IMG/VR virus record: IMGVR_UViG_3300007171_000042
Coordinates: 52,384-72,383 of that record
Strand: one strand, 5' to 3'
DNA from: an uncultured virus (IMG/VR IMGVR_UViG_3300007171_000042)
Taxonomy: Duplodnaviria; Heunggongvirae; Uroviricota; Caudoviricetes
Length of the DNA: 20,000 nucleotides
The translations under genes and the position numbers were made by a program. Positions 12,463 through 20,000 of the stretch are shown in pieces (the stretch's first letter is position 1; every line of letters starts with the position of its first letter). Below the pieces are notes generated by a model. That model had not been told where the DNA came from. It was given only the letters and a program-made list of their open reading frames with translations, and did not search any database.

Positions 12463-12855
12463 TTACTCCTGTATTAAAAGTTTTCCTTCTTCTGTCATAA
12501 TCAAGAAGAAAGGCATAGCAACATAAGGAGGTTCCTGATAGGGATCTGCTGCTATAAACGTAGGTTCTGGAATAGTACCCTCAAACCTTAAGTTTCCTGC
12601 GGGTCTGTTTTCGGTTATTAACTCAGTCGTAAAAGGAACAGACAATCCATTATACCCTTTACTTAAAGTTAAATAAAGTTTACTTCCATTAACAAAGAAA
12701 CTTCCCTTAACAGGACTATAAGAGTCAAAACTCTGAGCCCTTAAAACGCTTACATCGTAAGCAGAGATATAAGTACGCTCAGCCCTTCCTTTAAGGATAG
12801 CTTCTATCAACTCAGTTGCATAGCCATCCCCCCAAAAGTCTGGATACTGTCTCAT
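12463..12855 (-). CDS. Hypothetical protein (possibly virion associated)
   Basis: 130 aa ORF upstream of the fibre gene, with a promoter element 4 nt before its ATG. Confidence 0.7.
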   Translation of the reverse strand: MRQYPDFWGDGYATELIEAILKGRAERTYISAYDVSVLRAQSFDSYSPVKGSFFVNGSKLYLTLSKGYNGLSVPFTTELITENRPAGNLRFEGTIPEPTFIAADPYQEPPYVAMPFFLIMTEEGKLLIQE

Positions 12856-12859
12856 ACAA

Positions 12860-12912
12860 CAAAGATAAGCTTATTTAAAAATAAGTAAAGAGACCTAAAT
12901 TAACTATCTTTG
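12860..12912. promoter_or_regulatory. Back-to-back TAnnTTTG promoter elements at the strand switch
   Basis: TATCTTTG on minus at 12860-12867 and on plus at 12905-12912. Confidence 0.65.
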
Positions 12913-12938
12913 ATTTACAATAGATCTACAACATAGTT

Positions 12939-13619
12939 ATGATACAGGTTATCTTTGATCATATAACAGGCTTTGGCAAGATTACAGAGCAAGACTTTAT
13001 CTACTCAGACCCTAAGGGAATAGCCTTAGGAACAGACTATAATAATTATCTAAATGAAGGCTGGGTAGAATGGCAAGGATACTGGTATAATTTAAGATCA
13101 ACTAGAATTAAAATAAGTGACTATAAACCCACCAAGACTGTAAAACGCTTAGCCAATAAAGTCCAAATATCTAAAGTAATCCTAACTCAAGAAGAAGTAG
13201 ATAGACTTCAACCTGTCTACGAAAAATACATAACCACTAAAGGATACAAAAGGGATATAAAACTAGAAGACTTCCTAGATTACTTTGCGATTCTCTACTG
13301 GCACAATGAAAAGCTTATTGGAGCATCTATCTTCAAAGAGTATAAAACAGACCAAAAAGACATAGTTGACTATCAGTTTCTGTGGGACTATGAAGACCCT
13401 AAACTATCTTTGGGAAGCGTATCCCTATACTACGAGATAGAATTAACTAAAAACTCTGCCACCTACGTATACTTAATGGGAGGCTATGAAGAAGCCTGTA
13501 TTTATAAATCTAACTTTAAAGGGTTTGAATGGTGGACAGGAACGGAGTGGTCTTCCGACTTAGACCTTTACACACAACTTTGTAAAAGAGACAACAATGT
13601 ACATATACGAACCTCATAA
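12939..13619 (+). CDS. ATE1/Bpt-like aminoacyl-tRNA-protein transferase (GNAT fold)
   Basis: Ordered family-like motifs YLNEGW, RIKISDYKPTKTVKR, VYEKY, EKLIG, WDYEDPKLSLGSVSLYYEI, YVYLMG and CIYKSNF-x2-FE. Confidence 0.75.
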   Translation: MIQVIFDHITGFGKITEQDFIYSDPKGIALGTDYNNYLNEGWVEWQGYWYNLRSTRIKISDYKPTKTVKRLANKVQISKVILTQEEVDRLQPVYEKYITTKGYKRDIKLEDFLDYFAILYWHNEKLIGASIFKEYKTDQKDIVDYQFLWDYEDPKLSLGSVSLYYEIELTKNSATYVYLMGGYEEACIYKSNFKGFEWWTGTEWSSDLDLYTQLCKRDNNVHIRTS

Positions 13620-13800
13620 CAGACTAGAGGTAACTACTCCCAAAGGAAAAGGTATTGTATGGCTAGTCACAGATTACGGTCATGAAACCGATACTATCTA
13701 TACCGTCATTTTAGACAACGGGGAGATCTGGCAGTTTACCCACAAAGATATAAACACTAGAGATAATCTTACCTTTGGAAGACAAGTTTCCAAACCTTAA
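13597..13800 (+). CDS. Hypothetical protein
   Basis: 67 aa, overlaps the end of the transferase gene, beta-rich sequence. Confidence 0.7.
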   Translation: MYIYEPHNRLEVTTPKGKGIVWLVTDYGHETDTIYTVILDNGEIWQFTHKDINTRDNLTFGRQVSKP

Positions 13801-13997
13801 GTGATAATCTAAAATAAAAAAAATTTTCCAAAATTTCCCCCAAAATTTTAGACCCCCCCCCAATTTTTTGCCAGGGTCGTAAAGAAATTTTTTTTCTAAC
13901 CCCCTACCCCTTTATATCCATGAGAGGTGAGGGGACGTCAATATCAAATACCCCGTCTCGTGATTGAGTGTGGTGTAACCCCCCACATAAAACAGAT

Positions 13998-14306
13998 ATG
14001 GATATCAAGAAATTAGAAAACAAAACTGTTGCGGAATGCAAGGGTTTTGAGGTTAGTCAAAAGGTAATGCTCAACAAAAATGGTTATTACTTCATCAGAA
14101 TCTATCCAAAGGGAAAGCCTGACGAAAATGAGTGGGTGTACCTCTCACAAAGACTGACAAGAACAATGAAAGCACAAGGCACCTTTAATTACCCCGGTGA
14201 CGCTATGTTTAAACTTACTGTTAATGCAGACGGTGAAGAGCGTATGAAACTTGTGACTCCTCCAACTCCTATGGTTGACGCTACTACTATCTCCGCTTGG
14301 GGGTAG
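13998..14306 (+). CDS. Hypothetical early protein (start revised to ATG 13998)
   Basis: ATG lies in the recurring AACAGATATG leader. A hairpin at about 14283-14310 overlaps the stop. Confidence 0.75.
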   Translation: MDIKKLENKTVAECKGFEVSQKVMLNKNGYYFIRIYPKGKPDENEWVYLSQRLTRTMKAQGTFNYPGDAMFKLTVNADGEERMKLVTPPTPMVDATTISAWG

Positions 14307-14331
14307 TAGTTTGTCCAGTTATCTAACTTAA

Positions 14332-14457
14332 TTAGGGTCGATTGTCATAATATTGTCAGCAATTGACCCTAAATTAGGTTTTGTTTAACTTTTTTTTGTC
14401 TCAGCCCGGGAAAATCGGAGACAATTGTCATTTTGTTTAACTTTTTCATGACAATTG
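14332..14457. repeat. Inverted and direct repeat cluster
   Basis: 13-bp inverted repeat 14332-14344/14360-14372 (one G-T). Exact 16-bp direct repeat TTTTGTTTAACTTTTT at 14379 and 14431. CAATTG three times. Confidence 0.7.
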
Positions 14458-14717
14458 AAGTGGAAAAGAGTGGGAAAAAGGGGGTTAAAATGGGGGTTTT
14501 TCCCCCTTTATCTCCTTTCTAATGGGTTAAAATAGGCTAAAATCAAATCTGAAAAGAAGTTATATGATTAAAAAGTAAACCTATTAACCTTATTAGCCTT
14601 TATTCCCTCTATTAACGGATAACCTTTTATATAACTCCTTATATATTCTCTTATATGGTTGTTATTACTCGTCTCTTATGTCAGAGACGTTATCTAATGC
14701 TAAGCGAATTTTTTGCT

Positions 14718-14781
14718 TGGTCGACTATGAGACTATAAATAGCCTTTAGGCATAGTGCGTTACTCTTATGAGTAGGTATGG
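14718..14781 (+). ncRNA. Pistol-class self-cleaving ribozyme candidate
   Basis: P1 TGGTC/GACTA, loop ACTATG pairs with CATAGT, TAAATAG junction, GCG, P3 TTACTC/GAGTAG, GT cleavage dinucleotide, P2 CCTT/ATGG. Confidence 0.75.
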
Positions 14782-14795
14782 AAACAATAACAGAT

Positions 14796-15113
14796 ATGGA
14801 AAAGAAAATTGCTTATTTAATGAAAAGCTATGAATTTGATTCAACAGCTTGTCACGGTGAAGGTGCAGAAGTACAATGCTTTACTTTGGTATATTCAGAT
14901 AACTCTAAACTTAAGGTTAGTGATTATTTGGCTATCCCATTAATGAAGTTTGGTAATGTGCCTGTTAGATATTCAAACTATCATTGGAATTTTATTAATG
15001 AAGGTATTGTTCTAACTAAAGAACAAAGAGCATTAATAGATGATTATAGAAGTAACTATTCTAGTAGAAAAGTTCTTCCTACCCATGATTGTGTAAAATA
15101 TCTTTGGAATTAA
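14796..15113 (+). CDS. Hypothetical protein (start probably ATG 14796 rather than 14778)
   Basis: ATG 14796 lies in the AACAGATATG leader. ATG 14778 lies inside the ribozyme P2 strand. Confidence 0.7.
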   Translation: MEKKIAYLMKSYEFDSTACHGEGAEVQCFTLVYSDNSKLKVSDYLAIPLMKFGNVPVRYSNYHWNFINEGIVLTKEQRALIDDYRSNYSSRKVLPTHDCVKYLWN

Positions 15114-15114
15114 T

Positions 15115-15135
15115 AGGGGTGTAACAACCCCTTTT
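15115..15135 (+). terminator. Intrinsic terminator-like hairpin
   Basis: AGGGGT...ACCCCT followed by TTT. Confidence 0.6.
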
Positions 15136-15152
15136 ACTTTAATGCGTCATAA

Positions 15153-15422
15153 CCTACTTCACAAGGGTAGGCAATTGTTATTTGGACTTCGGAGACCATT
15201 TAGACGAACCTGTTACGTCATAACAATTGAATGAAGAAAACCCTAGAAGCGGGGTTCAAGACAGATATAATGCGAAGTGAAACTGTCTTAAACTAAACCA
15301 CACTACTGGTTAAGCACAATAGTAGTATATCTGGAGATAACTTCATAAGGATGGATTGTGCTTTTTAAACTACAAGGTATGGTAATCCTACTAACACAAC
15401 TAGCGGACCTTGTAGTTTTTTA
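15153..15422 (+). ncRNA. Structured intergenic RNA array (junction, hairpins, pseudoknot)
   Basis: Six consecutive stem elements (see findings). Confidence 0.5.
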
Positions 15423-15450
15423 TTATTGGACTTAAACAAAAAAAACAGAT

Positions 15451-15696
15451 ATGGAAAACACAGTATTAAACTATTGTAGATGGATTGTATCTCATAATTG
15501 TGTTGTTAAATACAATGTAGGAGATGACAGCCATGAAGGTTGGTATGTAAATGAATACGGTTATTGGAAATTTAGATTCTTTTATACTTATGAAGTAAAA
15601 GAGATGGTTTCTGGTAACTATACAGTATTAGGACATACTAATGAAAATTATGACTTTGCTTATTTGCGGAATTTTTTACATTCTGCATATAAGTAA
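15451..15696 (+). CDS. Hypothetical protein
   Basis: 81 aa, AACAGATATG leader. Confidence 0.7.
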   Translation: MENTVLNYCRWIVSHNCVVKYNVGDDSHEGWYVNEYGYWKFRFFYTYEVKEMVSGNYTVLGHTNENYDFAYLRNFLHSAYK

Positions 15697-15752
15697 TTCT
15701 TTCGGAGCTATCCGTTAAATAGCTTTTTTATTGACTTAAACAGAAAACAGAT

Positions 15753-15968
15753 ATGGAAATGGAAAATATGACCTTTGAACCTACTGTTAGACATAATACC
15801 TTATTACGGTATATGGATGACCAGACTAAAACAGCTCTTAAGCTGATGATTAACACCCTTGGCTATTATAACACTATTAGTGTTTTAATTAGTGAATGTG
15901 GTAAGAGTAACAATCAAGCCCGGATTTTAGCGGATATTGGGTGCTATATGTTAGAAGACTATGAGTAA
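15753..15968 (+). CDS. Hypothetical protein
   Basis: 71 aa, AACAGATATG leader. Confidence 0.7.
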   Translation: MEMENMTFEPTVRHNTLLRYMDDQTKTALKLMINTLGYYNTISVLISECGKSNNQARILADIGCYMLEDYE

Positions 15969-16173
15969 GTTTATAGTCTTCTCTACATTGGGTCAAGTGA
16001 AGAACTTTATTAAGCGTAAACTTCCCACTTATTACTCTAATGACGGATGTGGTTGTTGTTACAATGAATCATATCCTTTAATTAGAGGTAAGCGGTTGCT
16101 TTATGTCCAGGTAAATTCTACATACGGGCACATAACTGCGGAAGTAACTGTCATTGGCAGATACAAAAGATAA
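15961..16173 (+). CDS. Hypothetical protein with GCGCC motif
   Basis: 70 aa, overlaps upstream stop. Confidence 0.7.
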   Translation: MSKFIVFSTLGQVKNFIKRKLPTYYSNDGCGCCYNESYPLIRGKRLLYVQVNSTYGHITAEVTVIGRYKR

Positions 16174-16326
16174 AGAGTTATATAAACTCTGCAGAACACT
16201 CTACTGGCCATAGAGTGTATTTTTATCCGTGATTGGCCTCACGTCAAGGCAACTAAAGATGCCTTTGAAACACAAAGGGTGTTTCTAAAGGGGATTAGTG
16301 AACAAACGATCTAATCCCCAATTTTT
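16174..16326 (+). ncRNA. Six-hairpin intergenic array with possible kissing loops
   Basis: Back-to-back perfect stems (see findings). Confidence 0.5.
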
Positions 16327-16346
16327 ATTTTAAAGTAAAAACAGAT

Positions 16347-16526
16347 ATGAATATATATAAAGAGATTCCAAGCTTGATACTGATAGTATTGGGCTTGTTG
16401 GCTGCTTGGGTAGCCTTAACAGTATGTCAGACAGGTACTGGTGTTCAGTACTTCAGTGCTTTTATAGCATTAGGTTACTGGTTACTGGCTTTTTTGAGTT
16501 GGCCTAATAAAACTAAAGAGGTATGA
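16347..16526 (+). CDS. Small two-TM membrane protein, 59 aa (not in ORF track)
   Basis: MNIYKEIPSLILIVLGLLAAWVALTVCQTGTGVQYFSAFIALGYWLLAFLSWPNKTKEV, AACAGATATG leader. Confidence 0.75.
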   Translation: MNIYKEIPSLILIVLGLLAAWVALTVCQTGTGVQYFSAFIALGYWLLAFLSWPNKTKEV

Positions 16527-16699
16527 GAAGACTTACTTTTCTTTCCCTTCTATTAGGGATTGCTTGTATTGTTGCTATTCTAGCAGCATACTTAAGCGAA
16601 CAAATGGGCTTGACCGTTATCTCTAACTTCTTCTCTATTGGAGCCATTGTCACAGGCATTGGCTCCATAGTAATAGATTCTAAACCCTTTAAGCAATGA
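16523..16699 (+). CDS. Small two-TM membrane protein, 58 aa (not in ORF track)
   Basis: MRRLTFLSLLLGIACIVAILAAYLSEQMGLTVISNFFSIGAIVTGIGSIVIDSKPFKQ, ATGA overlaps at both ends. Confidence 0.75.
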   Translation: MRRLTFLSLLLGIACIVAILAAYLSEQMGLTVISNFFSIGAIVTGIGSIVIDSKPFKQ

Positions 16700-16923
16700 A
16701 TATGGAAGAATTTATAGAAGCATTTGCTGCTAGTGTACTTATTATAAAGATTAACCGCTTATACTTCTTTCTAGAAAGATTAGAAGAAGAGTATGAGTTA
16801 GGCAATATTTCTGATGAGTTTTATCTACAACAAAGCCAAGACTTAAAAGAAACACTAAACAGACTTACTGAAGACAATCCCTTTAATGAACTTAAAGAAG
16901 AACTTAATCTAATCACGTTATGA
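16696..16923 (+). CDS. Hypothetical acidic protein
   Basis: 75 aa, ATGA-coupled. Confidence 0.75.
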   Translation: MNMEEFIEAFAASVLIIKINRLYFFLERLEEEYELGNISDEFYLQQSQDLKETLNRLTEDNPFNELKEELNLITL

Positions 16924-17102
16924 ACACTGACATTCAAGAAAGATTAAACCACTTGTATCAAGAGCTTAATGCTGCAGAAAACGATTTACATTGTTTTACT
17001 GCTCCTGCTATGGACTCTGGTGAAGAAAACTGGGTAAGAGATCAAGAACGTTATATTGAATCTCTTAAACAAGAAATTAACTCTTTAACTACTTCCTTAT
17101 GA
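16920..17102 (+). CDS. Hypothetical coiled-coil protein
   Basis: 60 aa, ATGA-coupled. Confidence 0.75.
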   Translation: MNTDIQERLNHLYQELNAAENDLHCFTAPAMDSGEENWVRDQERYIESLKQEINSLTTSL

Positions 17103-17248
17103 GAGATCAATTCTTAGAACATTGGTATGTAGCTAAATCTTATGGACTCTTAGCGGAGTTCTTGGATTTCTACAGGTATTTCAGAAAGCAAGGTGTAAGC
17201 CGAACTTTCTCTGCTTACTATGCCGCTAAAGAAATCGGTATAGACTAA
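17099..17248 (+). CDS. Small hypothetical protein, 49 aa (not in ORF track)
   Basis: MRDQFLEHWYVAKSYGLLAEFLDFYRYFRKQGVSRTFSAYYAAKEIGID, ATGA-coupled, followed by a terminator. Confidence 0.7.
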   Translation: MRDQFLEHWYVAKSYGLLAEFLDFYRYFRKQGVSRTFSAYYAAKEIGID

Positions 17249-17258
17249 CTAAACTAAC

Positions 17259-17280
17259 GGGGGATTAAGTTCCCCCTTTT
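17259..17280 (+). terminator. Intrinsic terminator
   Basis: GGGGGA-TTAAGT-TCCCCC-TTTT. Confidence 0.7.
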
Positions 17281-17285
17281 ACTTT

Positions 17286-17609
17286 ATGAAAAAACTTATA
17301 TTAGTCGCTTTATTATTTATTGCAAAAAGCTCTACAGCGCAATGCTTTCCTATTAGAGCCTTTTCAGAATTACCTGGATTCTTACCTTTATCTTATCAAG
17401 ACACTCTATTTATAGAAGACTTGATAGGCGAAGGTCAAGATCCATTACCTGAAGTACTAGATTGCTTTGTATTTAAATACTCTGAATGGAACTACCTTAT
17501 TACATATAAGCTAAAAGATTGTGAGAAGCTATATGTAATTAAAGATGGTTACATAGGACCTATCTACATCTACAAAGACAAGAAAGTACAAGTATTAAAA
17601 AACAATTAA
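17286..17609 (+). CDS. Secreted hypothetical protein
   Basis: Signal peptide MKKLILVALLFIAKSSTA followed by Q, the usual Bacteroidota signal-peptidase-I pattern. Confidence 0.7.
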   Translation: MKKLILVALLFIAKSSTAQCFPIRAFSELPGFLPLSYQDTLFIEDLIGEGQDPLPEVLDCFVFKYSEWNYLITYKLKDCEKLYVIKDGYIGPIYIYKDKKVQVLKNN

Positions 17610-17646
17610 ACCAAACTAAAAACAAAAAAAACTAAAAAACAAAATT

Positions 17647-18234
17647 ATGACTTACGAAGATTTCAAATCAACCAATTTGGCTTTTGCTAGCAAAGCTTTC
17701 CGCAATTCTGGTATCAAAGCTCCAATCACTGTTATGTTCGAGTGTTTCACTCCTGCTAACTTGTCTGTTCACCAACGTATGATTAGCCGTGGTCTTGGTG
17801 GTAACTTAACCAACCGTATGACTGCATTGCTTAACTACACAGAAGATAACTTCAACAAAGATTTTAGTCAATTTGGCTTAACTGCTGATGCTATTCAAGG
17901 TTCTTATGCTGATGCTACTGAAGTAAATGTAAGCACTTCTCAGTTGTATGGTGAAGACTTAATCCTTCGCAGAGTAGACACTACTGACGATGCAGTAGTT
18001 AAAAACCCTGATGGTAGCTTGAAGCCACAATGGTCCGTTAAAAGTGTTAATGGTCAGGAATTGACCTTTGAAGGTGCTTTGATTTACACTTCTGTGGAAT
18101 TTGCTGAACCAGGTATGGCTAATGCTACTATTAAGCAAGATCAAAACTTGTCTCGTAGCATTACTAGCATGACTGCTAATCCTATGGATGCAATCAAAGA
18201 AAACAAAGTTAAAGCTACCGAAGAGGTATTTTAA
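17647..18234 (+). CDS. Hypothetical protein, probably highly expressed
   Basis: 195 aa, long A-rich leader, biased codons (GCT, ACT, CGT, GGT). Confidence 0.8.
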   Translation: MTYEDFKSTNLAFASKAFRNSGIKAPITVMFECFTPANLSVHQRMISRGLGGNLTNRMTALLNYTEDNFNKDFSQFGLTADAIQGSYADATEVNVSTSQLYGEDLILRRVDTTDDAVVKNPDGSLKPQWSVKSVNGQELTFEGALIYTSVEFAEPGMANATIKQDQNLSRSITSMTANPMDAIKENKVKATEEVF

Positions 18235-18254
18235 TTAAAATACATTAAATTTGT

Positions 18255-18276
18255 AGGGAGTCGAAAGGCTCCCTTT
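18255..18276 (+). terminator. GAAA-tetraloop hairpin upstream of the tRNA (terminator or processing site)
   Basis: AGGGAGTC-GAAA-GGCTCCCT-TT. Confidence 0.55.
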
Positions 18277-18278
18277 AT

Positions 18279-18366
18279 GTCGAAATGGTGGAATAGGTAG
18301 ACACGCAGCACTTAAAATGCTGTAATCTGAAAGATTGTGCGAGTTCGACTCTCGCTTTCGGCACCA
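18279..18366 (+). tRNA. tRNA-Leu(UAA) with encoded CCA
   Basis: Acceptor GTCGAAA/TTTCGGC, anticodon arm CAGCA-CTTAAAA-TGCTG (TAA at 18313-18315), long variable arm AATCT-GAA-AGATT, T arm GCGAG-TTCGACT-CTCGC, discriminator A then CCA. Confidence 0.95.
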
Positions 18367-18385
18367 AAAAACCAACTAAAAAATT

Positions 18386-18652
18386 ATGGATAACGTACAA
18401 GATGTGCCAATGACACCAGCACTAGAACCAACAATGGAAAAAGTAGCTGAACTAAAAGAATGGAGACCTTCAAACAATGAAGCTCTTCGTGAGTTTGAAA
18501 TCAACATTAGATTTTTAAGCAGAGGATGTGTTGTAAGAGTGGGATGCAAAGAGATTGCATTTGAAGATCACACTAATGCAATGGCTGCTATTAACAATTA
18601 CGTTGCTAATCCTTGGGATGAACAACAAAAATGGCGTAAAATTTTAGACTAA
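18386..18652 (+). CDS. Hypothetical protein
   Basis: 88 aa, A-rich leader, TAATG-coupled to the RyR-domain gene. Confidence 0.75.
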   Translation: MDNVQDVPMTPALEPTMEKVAELKEWRPSNNEALREFEINIRFLSRGCVVRVGCKEIAFEDHTNAMAAINNYVANPWDEQQKWRKILD

Positions 18653-19050
18653 TGAGTGGAACAGTAGAATTTCAAGGCACTCAAGAGGAATGGGAAGCTT
18701 TAAAAAAAGAAAACAGGATTAAATGGATTGCTTGTGTTTGTCATCAAGCTAACAAAGCATGGTGTGAATCTGAGGGAGATGATTCTCAAAAAGATTGGGC
18801 ATTTGCAGAAGACTGGCAACGTGATTCAGCAATTAAAGGAGTTAAGTTCCGCTTAGAAAATCCTGATGCAGGACCAGATGCACAACACAATGCTTGGAGT
18901 GCAGATAAAATTGCTGATGGATGGGTCTATGGAGAAGTTAAAGACGCTGAGAAGAAGACTCACCCTTGCTTAGTTCCCTTTGATCAGTTACCTTTGTTTC
19001 AGCAAAAGAAAGACAAACTATTTAGTGCTATTGTAGATGCACTAAAGTAA
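18652..19050 (+). CDS. RyR-domain protein
   Basis: HNAW...K...GWVYG...KD...KTHPCLVPFDQL...KD is the RyR repeat (Pfam RyR) signature. Confidence 0.85.
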   Translation: MSGTVEFQGTQEEWEALKKENRIKWIACVCHQANKAWCESEGDDSQKDWAFAEDWQRDSAIKGVKFRLENPDAGPDAQHNAWSADKIADGWVYGEVKDAEKKTHPCLVPFDQLPLFQQKKDKLFSAIVDALK

Positions 19051-19058
19051 AGATCAAC

Positions 19059-19207
19059 CCTGTGGATAGAATCTGCAGGCCATGTACCATTAAGCATACC
19101 GTAAGATCTGCTAGAGATGGTCTTCGAGTTACTAGGAAAGCCTTAGGGTATAACTAGTAACAACCCCCAGTAAGCCTGCTTGATCAACAGAAACTGCTGG
19201 GGTTTTT
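19059..19207 (+). ncRNA. Four-element hairpin cluster ending in a terminator-like stem
   Basis: CCTGTGGAT/ATCTGCAGG, GGCCAT/ATGGTC, GTTACTAG/CTAGTAAC, CCCCAG/CTGGGG followed by TTTTT. Confidence 0.45.
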
Positions 19208-19209
19208 AT

Positions 19210-19368
19210 AGTCAGGTGGTGTAATGTTTATATATTGGTCAATCATAAGAACCCACTATATAACTTGGGCACACAATGTGATGCTGCTATCCGTAAGCAA
19301 AAACGGGGAAAGACCTTAGCAAGGTATGCTATAAACACATAGATACAGGTTTGAATCCTGTCCGACTA
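19210..19368 (+). ncRNA. tRNA-like RNA with expanded D and anticodon loops
   Basis: All four tRNA stems with canonical linker spacing: AGTCAGG, TG, GTGT/ACAC, A, ATGTG/CACAT, AGAT, ACAGG-TTTGAAT-CCTGT, CCGACT-A. Confidence 0.7.
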
Positions 19369-19369
19369 G

Positions 19370-19415
19370 AACAAGTAAATGGGGTAGTAGAAATATTACC
19401 CCAGTACTTGTTTTT
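19370..19415 (+). terminator. Long hairpin with T tract
   Basis: AACAAGTA..TGGGGTAGTA-GAAA-TATTACCCCA..TACTTGTT then TTT. Confidence 0.65.
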
Positions 19416-19437
19416 AAATTAAAAGTTCGTATATTTG
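19408..19437 (+). promoter_or_regulatory. Bacteroidota-type promoter for the HNH gene
   Basis: TTG-N19-TATATTTG, 7 nt before ATG 19445. Confidence 0.75.
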
Positions 19438-19444
19438 TGACTAC

Positions 19445-19861
19445 ATGGAAAGGTTCTTTAATAAAATAGAAAAAACAGATTCTTGCTGGATATGGAAAGC
19501 GGGGTTACGTGGTAAAACAGGATATGGTGTTTTTAAACTTAATGGAAAGACTATAGATGCACATAGACTATCCTATCAACTGCACAAAGGAGAAATACCT
19601 GAAAAAATGTATGTTTGTCATACTTGTGATAATCGAAAATGTGTTAATCCAGAACATTTATTCTTAGGTACTCCTAAAGACAATTGGCAAGACGGATTTG
19701 ATAAAAATAGAATAAAGTTATTAGGAGGAATAGATACTGAAAAATTAAAAAAACATCCAAGCATAAGTGCTTATAATAAAGGATGTAGATGTAGAGATTG
19801 TAAAGACTTAAAATTTGCAGCTCAAAGAAATTGGAGGGAGAAACAAAAACTCCTGTCCTGA
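19445..19861 (+). CDS. HNH homing endonuclease
   Basis: CWIW...GYG...AHRLSY...[20 protein letters not shown] motif plus C-terminal H-x4-Y-x2-GCRC-x2-C zinc-finger-like motif. Confidence 0.92.
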
Positions 19862-19867
19862 CTACAA

Positions 19868-20000
19868 TGAGTAAGAGATACTCAGAGTCTTTGACCTAAG
19901 ACTCATTTAAAAATAGGTTGGCAGAAAGTCTACGGCCAGAGTGGGACTTCGTGGGATAAAGGAGAGTGACACATCTCCTCCCAGTAGTGTTGACTGTTTT
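19868..20000 (+). ncRNA. Structured RNA candidate, possibly continuing past the window
   Basis: Two hairpins then a three-way junction (see findings). Confidence 0.45.

Follow-up and report, generated by a model that had tools for sequence, protein, structure and literature searches.

Does the short stretch in front of a small phage gene encode a working self-cleaving ribozyme, and what would its cleavage do for that gene? The original prediction placed a pistol-like ribozyme in the leader of an early gene of the window (the whole 20,000-nucleotide stretch analysed here, from a 72,383-nt virus record), and proposed either that it processes the early transcript or that it is slowed or decaying. 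The pistol class reportedly goes back to Weinberg et al. in 2015, and while its chemistry is well characterised, its biological job is, to our knowledge, still unknown. Our reading, which draws on sequence comparison, is that the locus likely holds an active, possibly slowed pistol that would cut upstream RNA off the cassette of a 105-codon ORF in a crAss-like phage.

Membership of the pistol family

The match that had been anticipated for the Rfam Pistol covariance model (RF02679) was obtained on the plus strand of the window at 14719–14781, with 46.1 bits where the gathering threshold is 34.5 (E 9.8e-6 in a search of all 4227 families over the 20-kb window) and with model positions 1–68 of 68 covered. 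This is the only pistol that an Rfam search of the whole record returned, the same search gave no RF02679 match in 14 control genomes, and a scan of 12800–20000 at E<=1 yielded the pistol and one tRNA and nothing else, so that no other ribozyme was found in that region. An identical copy is present in a second IMG/VR record (L078, in G001), with 100% identity over 478 nt and the same 46.1 bits. A chance match is ruled out as an explanation by the covariance-model score together with the orthologous copies described below. We therefore hold with high confidence, on sequence and structure, that 14719–14781 is a genuine pistol-class ribozyme, and it adds a further example to a known ribozyme class.

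The single elements named in the original prediction (pseudoknot, linker, purine-G, GCG, P3 and the G-U junction) were each found in the sequence where it had put them (Table 1), and P1, which had been drawn as 14718-22/14731-35, holds for 14719-22 with 14731-34 (G14719·U14734, G14720-C14733, U14721-A14732 and C14722-G14731); the outermost pair U14718-A14735 could also form, although the AUAAAUA linker begins with A14735. The window agrees with the upper-case Rfam consensus everywhere except at C12, which is A, and at the partner of C26. Against that consensus, the pseudoknot is changed at three positions, all as paired changes, and the U6/A38 difference is a paired swap inside it. All of the unpaired conserved core (linker, purine 32, G33, G40, C41 and G42) agrees with the upper-case consensus; this list of core nucleotides was taken from the Rfam consensus and passages of the review PMC6154101, and not from the published figure of “10 highly conserved nucleotides”.

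Table 1. Features of the pistol locus in window coordinates, with the basis of each assignment.
Feature	Position	Strand	Basis or remark
Pistol-class self-cleaving ribozyme, whole motif	14719..14781	+	RF02679, 46.1 bits, model 1-68/68
P1 hairpin, four pairs (14719-22 with 14731-34) plus non-canonical G14723·A14730	14719..14734	+	Sequence, Rfam alignment
Pseudoknot 5' strand ACUAUG (P1 loop)	14724..14729	+	6/6 Watson-Crick with 14751-56
A-rich linker AUAAAUA plus conserved G14742, AUAAAUAG	14735..14742	+	Upper-case Rfam consensus
P2 5' strand CCU	14743..14745	+	One A fewer than CCAU of the first pistol of L123
Junction UUAGG, with G14749 (position called purine 32) and G14750 (G33)	14746..14750	+	Rfam alignment
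Pseudoknot 3' strand CAUAGU	14751..14756	+	Pairs with 14724-29
GCG: G14757 (G40 equivalent, proposed general base), then C41, G42	14757..14759	+	Rfam consensus; roles from passages of PMC6154101
P3 hairpin, six pairs (14760-65/14770-75), outer pair U·G, loop UUAU	14760..14775	+	Also in the minimum-free-energy fold
Predicted scissile G-U junction	G14776-U14777	+	Rfam alignment position
P2 3' strand AUGG	14778..14781	+	U14779 bulged or U·U
A-rich leader of 19 nt without Shine-Dalgarno	14777..14795	+	Left after the predicted cut; AACAGATATGG at 14789-14799
ORF, 105 aa	14796..15113	+	No Pfam or PHROG family
Terminator-like hairpin at the end of the proposed cassette	15115..15132	+	
Upstream hairpin, overlapping the first 3 nt of P1, may compete	14699..14721	+	Minimum-free-energy fold of 14660-14800; conjectural
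Two TTTGTTTAACTTTT copies with nearby GACAATTGTC-type palindromes, candidate promoter/operator	14380..14445	+	

The assignments above can be set against what is known of the class. According to passages of Harris et al. 2015 (PMC4604425), the cleavage site is the G-U junction, whose length is strictly conserved, and the products carry a 2',3'-cyclic phosphate and a 5'-OH; by analogy, the predicted cut would leave the cyclic phosphate on G14776 and the 5'-OH on U14777. Position 32 is a conserved purine, and an A32G mutant stays active, according to the passages of the review PMC6154101 that also treat the roles of G40, C41 and G42. The order of the elements, the three stems, the 6-bp pseudoknot between the P1 loop and the P2–P3 junction, the A-rich linker, the purine-G, the GCG, the two-base G-U junction and the location near phage genes are all shared with the class RF02679 as passages of PMC4604425 present it. 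Likewise, the window has equivalents of the purine 32 (G14749), G33, G40-C41-G42 and G53-U54 of the solved pistols PDB 5K7C and 5KTJ (known to us via passages of PMC6154101), from which it differs in being a copy known from sequence alone.

For family-wide comparison, we built a covariance model of our own, R1, from 14 sequences including the window (its 72.2 bits on the window are the score of a seed member), and searched 100 sources with it; pistols were collected from IMG/VR by a core pattern in which P1, P2, P3 and the pseudoknot were left free, giving at least 121 loci (about 130 estimated). Core invariance in this set follows by construction, the core having been fixed in the search pattern, and the core was thus judged on the independent Rfam consensus. 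In the family alignment fitted to R1 (103 matches, 84 distinct sequences), 95.9% of the cells of the structure are paired in the distinct sequences, compared with 64.7% in shuffles, and the covariation score is 0.628 compared with 0.160, a value reached by 0/500 shuffles; in this R1-fitted alignment the pseudoknot helix is 97.8% paired, with both-side changes at five of its six pairs. Among the matches listed, 92 viral pistols were parsed: the G after the linker, a position left free in the pattern, is present in 92/92, and the two-base junction is GU in 71/92. A pattern specific to the ribozyme of this lineage found no match in IMG/VR beyond the twin record and none in bacterial and archaeal genomes. 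The general core pattern found 47 stretches in bacterial and archaeal genomes, of which 23 have P1 and the pseudoknot, four of them of Bacteroidota origin; the remaining 24, without P1 and the pseudoknot, were discarded as chance matches.

Two departures from the family and the relatives of the locus

Both departures that had been flagged from the sequence, a G-A in place of the P1 closing pair and a U-U in P2, proved to be real and unusual in family counts, and they distinguish the window, with its G·A for G-C atop P1 and a P2 of three pairs in which one U is bulged or mismatched, from the pistol class. At the P1 closing pair, 82 of the 84 distinct alignment rows have letters, and these are GC in 78, GU in three and something else in just one, which is the window. 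The 92 unique viral sequences among the matches listed have GC in 86, GU in three, AU in one and GA in two, both GA cases being the window and its identical twin, and the 23 genome copies have GC in 22, GU in one and G·A in none. The G·A at pair 5-12 is confined to the window lineage among the pistols examined. A C at 14730 in sequencing runs X1, X2 and X8 was set aside, as it stems at least partly from non-orthologous pistols and thus only repeats the family consensus.

The P2 helix is less straightforward. As originally drawn, 14743-46/14778-81 gives three pairs and a U·U, a register that stands as an alternative; Rfam instead uses 14742-45/14778-81, with two of four pairs formed, and the simplest reading of the sequence would be three pairs (U14745-A14778, C14744-G14780 and C14743-G14781) with U14779 bulged. 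In viral pistols, a conserved G and three pairs are typical, all three being formed in 64/92 of the matches listed and parsed, and a mismatch of the middle pair occurs in 6/92 of these, including the window and its twin. The first pistol of the relative L123 has a P2 of four perfect pairs, CCAU/AUGG, and that A is absent from the window and from L125. This one-base loss appears to be tolerated because it is common to the window and L125, which are about 89.5% identical in DNA.

What such changes cost has been recorded for another pistol: mutations that disrupt P1 led to substantial activity loss in the Lysinibacillus pistol (passages of PMC4604425). Our literature search for a large-scale test of natural pistols found none, the pistol is not among the ribozymes of the pairwise-mutagenesis study PMC9901934, and the passages of the review PMC6154101 hold nothing on a G·A at the P1/pseudoknot junction. 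Given its G·A in P1 and the U in P2 that is either bulged or mismatched, the window copy probably cleaves slower than its relatives, and between “slowed” and “decaying”, the two outcomes offered by the original prediction, we lean toward an active but slower ribozyme.

Relatives of the locus were not found by blastn and megablast of the locus and the whole window against GenBank phages (no close relatives), nor were relatives of the ORF found in IMG/VR by peptide patterns. In a metagenome scan, eight loci encode the ORF, and three of these (L123, L124 and L125, with 87–88% amino acid identity) have a pistol directly upstream: two tandem pistols with Rfam scores of 52.6 and 72.2 bits in L123 and its duplicate L124, and one pistol of 59.7 bits in L125. 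The 46.1 bits of the window is the lowest Rfam score among these orthologous copies, and the array of seven pistols in another phage record, G002, has scores on either side of it (42.8–66.1 bits). In L127, L128, L129 and L130 a search at E<=1 gave no pistol, L126 offers just 29 nt upstream, and L126–L128, which hold a homologue of the whole ORF at 67% identity, have no ribozyme sequence in common with the window. The gene occurs without the ribozyme in more distant relatives.

Compared with L125 and L123, the window carries a compensated flip at P1 pair 2-15 (C-G in these relatives, G-C in the window), a change at P1 pair 1-16 from A-U to G·U, and differences in P3 that are paired changes. Such paired changes are signs, as far as sequence can tell, of selection and maintenance in this lineage. 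The pseudoknot of the second L123 pistol is wholly different in sequence and is yet complementary.

Further along L123, at 897–940, a hairpin followed by TTTAAATAG-AAACAGAT-ATG precedes the next gene (ORF 937–1263) and resembles a pistol that has lost its middle. In one run X8 contig, at window 14782, the sequence that directly follows the P2 of a pistol reads MIQYWMKFY, which is like the MVQYWMKFY of that L123 ORF.

The downstream gene and its genomic setting

The original prediction put the gene start at 14796, behind a leader of 19 nt, and this was borne out by the conservation of homologues, by an out-of-frame GUG in two relatives and by a recurring start motif, AACAGATATGG. The ORF has four homologues in the database, with 81–100% identity, of which three have a called length of 105 aa and one of 108 aa; in all four the conservation begins at the Met of ATG 14796. 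In L125, and before the ORF copy behind the second pistol of L123, a GUG stands in the place of window AUG 14778 and is in another frame than the ORF. The motif AACAGATATGG occurs on the plus strand at 13991, 14789, 15444 and 15746, and with one mismatch at 16340, each time on an ORF ATG; these five copies compare with 0.42 expected, and 0/200 shuffles get to five. Since homologues, frame in the relatives and AACAGATATGG agree, the ORF starts at ATG 14796 and the predicted cut leaves 19 nt before it. Four other ORFs bear AACAGATATGG without a ribozyme, and the ribozyme is thus not required for expressing genes of this kind. The motif also suggests that an ORF listed from GTG 13968 truly starts at ATG 13998. 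The protein of 105 aa itself retrieved no family in a PHROG and Pfam search.

The large terminase of the record has its best match in a Leptolyngbya phage (40%), followed by Cellulophaga, crAss, Flavobacterium and Bacteroides phages, and the genome that carries the pistol resembles, by this sequence evidence, that of a crAss-like phage; no pistol was found in the three crAss-like and related phage genomes of GenBank that were searched. Passages of PMC4604425 describe the class as prevalent in Firmicutes, from which a pistol in a crAss-like phage with Shine-Dalgarno-less starts differs, and report that one tested pistol comes from Alistipes putredinis. The minus strand carries structural genes up to 12855, and a cluster of small plus-strand ORFs extends from 12939 to the end of the window, a layout from which the “early” timing given to the gene in the original prediction is plausible. 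The cluster also holds a tRNA-Leu(UAA) at 18279–18366 and an HNH endonuclease gene at 19445–19861, both on the plus strand, and a 226-aa ORF (12939–13619, plus strand) that matches Pfam ATE_C, the C terminus of arginine-tRNA-protein transferase, with 26.9 bits where the cut-off is 25, which is unusual in a phage. A strong hairpin with a T-run at 15369–15421 (plus strand), 96% conserved in L125, lies about 25 nt before the ATG of the ORF at 15451, an odd placement for a terminator, directly before a gene start.

The ribozyme is preceded by a non-coding stretch of 412 nt, which holds two TTTGTTTAACTTTT copies and a GC hairpin. No further copies of TTTGTTTAACTTTT were found in the 72-kb record beyond these two, and the block is 81% conserved upstream of the L125 pistol; we regard the TTTGTTTAACTTTT/GACAATTGTC block as a candidate promoter/operator, whose promoter function we infer from sequence. 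As a whole, the block spans window 14340–14460 and is conserved in L125 and L078. A terminator-like hairpin at 14492–14506 lies between these repeats and the ribozyme, and no promoter of the sigma-70 type was found between 14500 and 14718 on the plus strand.

The box TAnnTTTG is the promoter box (-7 type) of Bacteroidota. It is absent between 13778 and 15098, and 27 occurrences in the whole window compare with 23.7 in shuffles, that is, no excess. Boxes at 12860 (minus) and 12905 (plus), 6078 (minus) and 6239 (plus), 9759 (minus) and 19430 (plus) are located in divergent intergenic regions, a short way upstream of ORFs that lead operons, and these positions hint at a Bacteroidota host.

Proposed action, rival readings and a possible cassette

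We propose that the plus-strand RNA, once transcribed, would fold into P1, the 6-bp pseudoknot, P3 and a short P2, and that internal transesterification would cut it between G14776 and U14777. The cut would discard the upstream RNA, be it about 410 nt of non-coding sequence or a longer polycistronic transcript. What remains of the ORF message would start with a 5'-OH, its A-rich leader of 19 nt would have no Shine-Dalgarno, and its start region would be the same as on the four neighbouring ORFs. At the RNA level, the start region of the gene would be insulated from its upstream context, and at the DNA level the conserved ribozyme sequence may serve as a site for homologous exchange. All of these steps, namely the transcription, cleavage and rate of the window pistol and its insulator and recombination roles, are deduced from comparison. 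A useful activity of the window pistol is what we judge fairly likely from its sequence.

The reading opposed to this is an inactive relic, in which the G·A in P1 and the one-base loss in P2 have abolished useful cleavage and the motif persists because there has been too little time for decay. Both changes do strike pairs that the family keeps, the score is the lowest among the orthologous copies, disruption of P1 is harmful in another pistol (passages of PMC4604425), and other relatives have the gene without the ribozyme. Against a relic stand the conserved unpaired core, the 6/6 pseudoknot, P3 and the two-base junction, all of them intact, the compensated flip at P1 pair 2-15, and a score inside the range of the G002 array; moreover, the P2 deletion, being common to L125, has survived the divergence of two copies with about 89.5% DNA identity. 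By analogy only, twister ribozymes broadly tolerate structural imperfections in a large direct test (passages of PMC11662667). We consider a relic unlikely on this balance.

The same weak P1 admits a gated or timed ribozyme, in which P1 and the hairpin at 14699–14721 would slow folding, so that cleavage would act as a delay or a switch on the ORF message. P1 is weaker in the window than in any relative, and the minimum-free-energy fold of 14660–14800 has the upstream hairpin in place of P1, but this comes from one thermodynamic prediction, whose MFE structure has a frequency of 0.005 in the ensemble; the upstream hairpin is not conserved in L123 or L125, sitting in an upstream module absent from both and having no comparative support, and no ligand-binding or sensing element is apparent, all of which makes gating quite improbable to us. 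A leaderless start, finally, would make AUG 14778-80, in the 3' strand of P2 and one base past the cut, the true start (METITDMEKK...). That AUG is in frame with ATG 14796, and behind the first pistol of L123 a 54-codon ORF begins at the equivalent AUG and is called as a gene in the protein collection; the conservation among the homologues, however, starts no earlier than the Met at 14796, L125 and the second pistol of L123 have the equivalent GUG out of frame with the ORF, and the recurring motif AACAGATATGG ends at 14796-99. We give this start very little credence.

The placement of pistols in other phages bears on the proposed cleavage upstream of the ORF. Among the matches listed, the ATG of the next ORF lies 18–37 nt past the cleavage site in 21/91 unique viral pistols, compared with 3/91 and 5/91 in two controls, and a same-strand open frame (at least 40 codons) ends 0–29 nt before P1 in 34 of the 62 listed pistols that have at least 300 nt upstream, compared with 5/62 in each of two shifted controls. 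In G002, the record of L058 and L059, seven pistols stand one before each of seven consecutive ORFs (25961–30279), all above the Rfam threshold; they lie 1–2 nt past the previous stop in 4/7 and 23–35 nt before the next ATG in 5/7, and a repeated Shine-Dalgarno-bearing leader follows each cut site. This placement fits an intercistronic processing that would give each gene a uniform short leader, a use for which our literature search on intercistronic self-cleavage by pistols found no papers. Two pistols are also borne by L050.

A same-strand tRNA-Arg(UCU) lies downstream of the pistol in 29/120 viral loci among the matches listed, all of one pistol subfamily (L003, L004, L008, L011, L012, L014, L018, L019, L023–L025, L029, L031, L038, L040, L041, L053, L057, L066, L069, L070, L082, L087, L092, L094, L106, L109, L112 and L115). 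The gap is mostly about 160–200 nt, and 2 nt in L023, a tRNA-Asp(GUC) often comes next, and several of these loci are on contigs of 170–230 kb. These tRNA-linked pistols suggest a role in the processing of phage tRNA precursors.

For other ribozyme classes, the hammerhead and the twister, a processing of polycistronic bacterial messages has been proposed (passages of the review PMC6765202). The same passages describe ribozymes between or before cistrons on the same strand, as here, and products whose ends differ, possibly with effects on stability or translation; the difference is that the proposal concerns other classes than the pistol of the window.

RiboJ is a synthetic, hammerhead-derived insulator for 5' leaders, whose self-cleavage removes variable upstream RNA. 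The likeness to the window pistol is that the start region behaves alike in any context after the upstream RNA is removed, and the difference is that RiboJ is an engineered part, the natural insulating role being one that we propose.

In nucleotide sequence, L125 and L123 are homologous to the window from 14721 onward, so the break lies at the 5' end of the ribozyme, and the homology with L126–L128 and with a cut copy in L130 covers the ORF only, from 14794. In one contig of run X1, 14718 is joined to 15153 via 20 other letters that resemble 15133–15152, and because of this join the contig is without exactly the ribozyme, the ORF and the hairpin. One contig of the RNA-library run X3 matches 14672–14718 and then continues with unlike sequence; the RNA-library runs listed hold 5–7% of the sampled words, as assembled contigs, which cannot show ends, and the four that were compared yielded neither usable 5' ends nor proof of transcription. 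The L125 ribozyme agrees with the first L123 pistol at 45/46 positions in its 5' part and with the second at 39/40 in its 3' part, and L125 is thus an apparent hybrid, as would be expected from exchange between tandem copies.

Our reading of these borders is that 14719–15132, with ribozyme, ORF and closing hairpin, would form one portable cassette headed by the ribozyme. Given the tandem and hybrid copies, the homology breaks at the ribozyme 5' end and the seven pistol-led genes in a row, we tentatively extend this to phage pistols at large, as a possibility that we hold doubtful rather than probable: they may be heads of portable cassettes, acting as insulators at the RNA level and, at the DNA level, as homology patches of about 65 nt for gain, loss, duplication and fusion, a recombination role that draws on one hybrid copy and a few break points. 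Were this so, the damaged ribozyme of the window would be a product of such exchange. A conserved junction element (hairpin, TTTAATGC-type box and ACTTCACAAGGGT, in this order) is also seen between cassettes, at window 15139–15181, L128 2209–2251, L130 2174–2211 and L123 1247–1317, and the order of this element with the TTTAATGC-type box relative to the ORF differs among the relatives.

By analogy, the closest described parallel to the cassette reading would be the PeSL cassettes of T4-type phages, in which, according to passages of PMC2839356 and PMC4122927, small variable genes sit between short conserved regulatory repeats at which the break points of indels and replacements fall, in contrast with the present case in that these repeats are promoter–terminator motifs and not ribozymes. 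The pattern of break points suggests a role of the pistol in phage gene shuffling, one that those passages describe for promoter/stem-loop repeats and not for ribozymes. The locus extends pistols to crAss-like phages whose genes are without Shine-Dalgarno, and it provides a natural series round one gene, with no ribozyme, with one, with two in tandem, with a hybrid, and with a copy having a P1 mismatch and a lost P2 base. This series makes testable the effect of cleavage on the expression and stability of the downstream message, and also how much imperfection is tolerated by a natural pistol.
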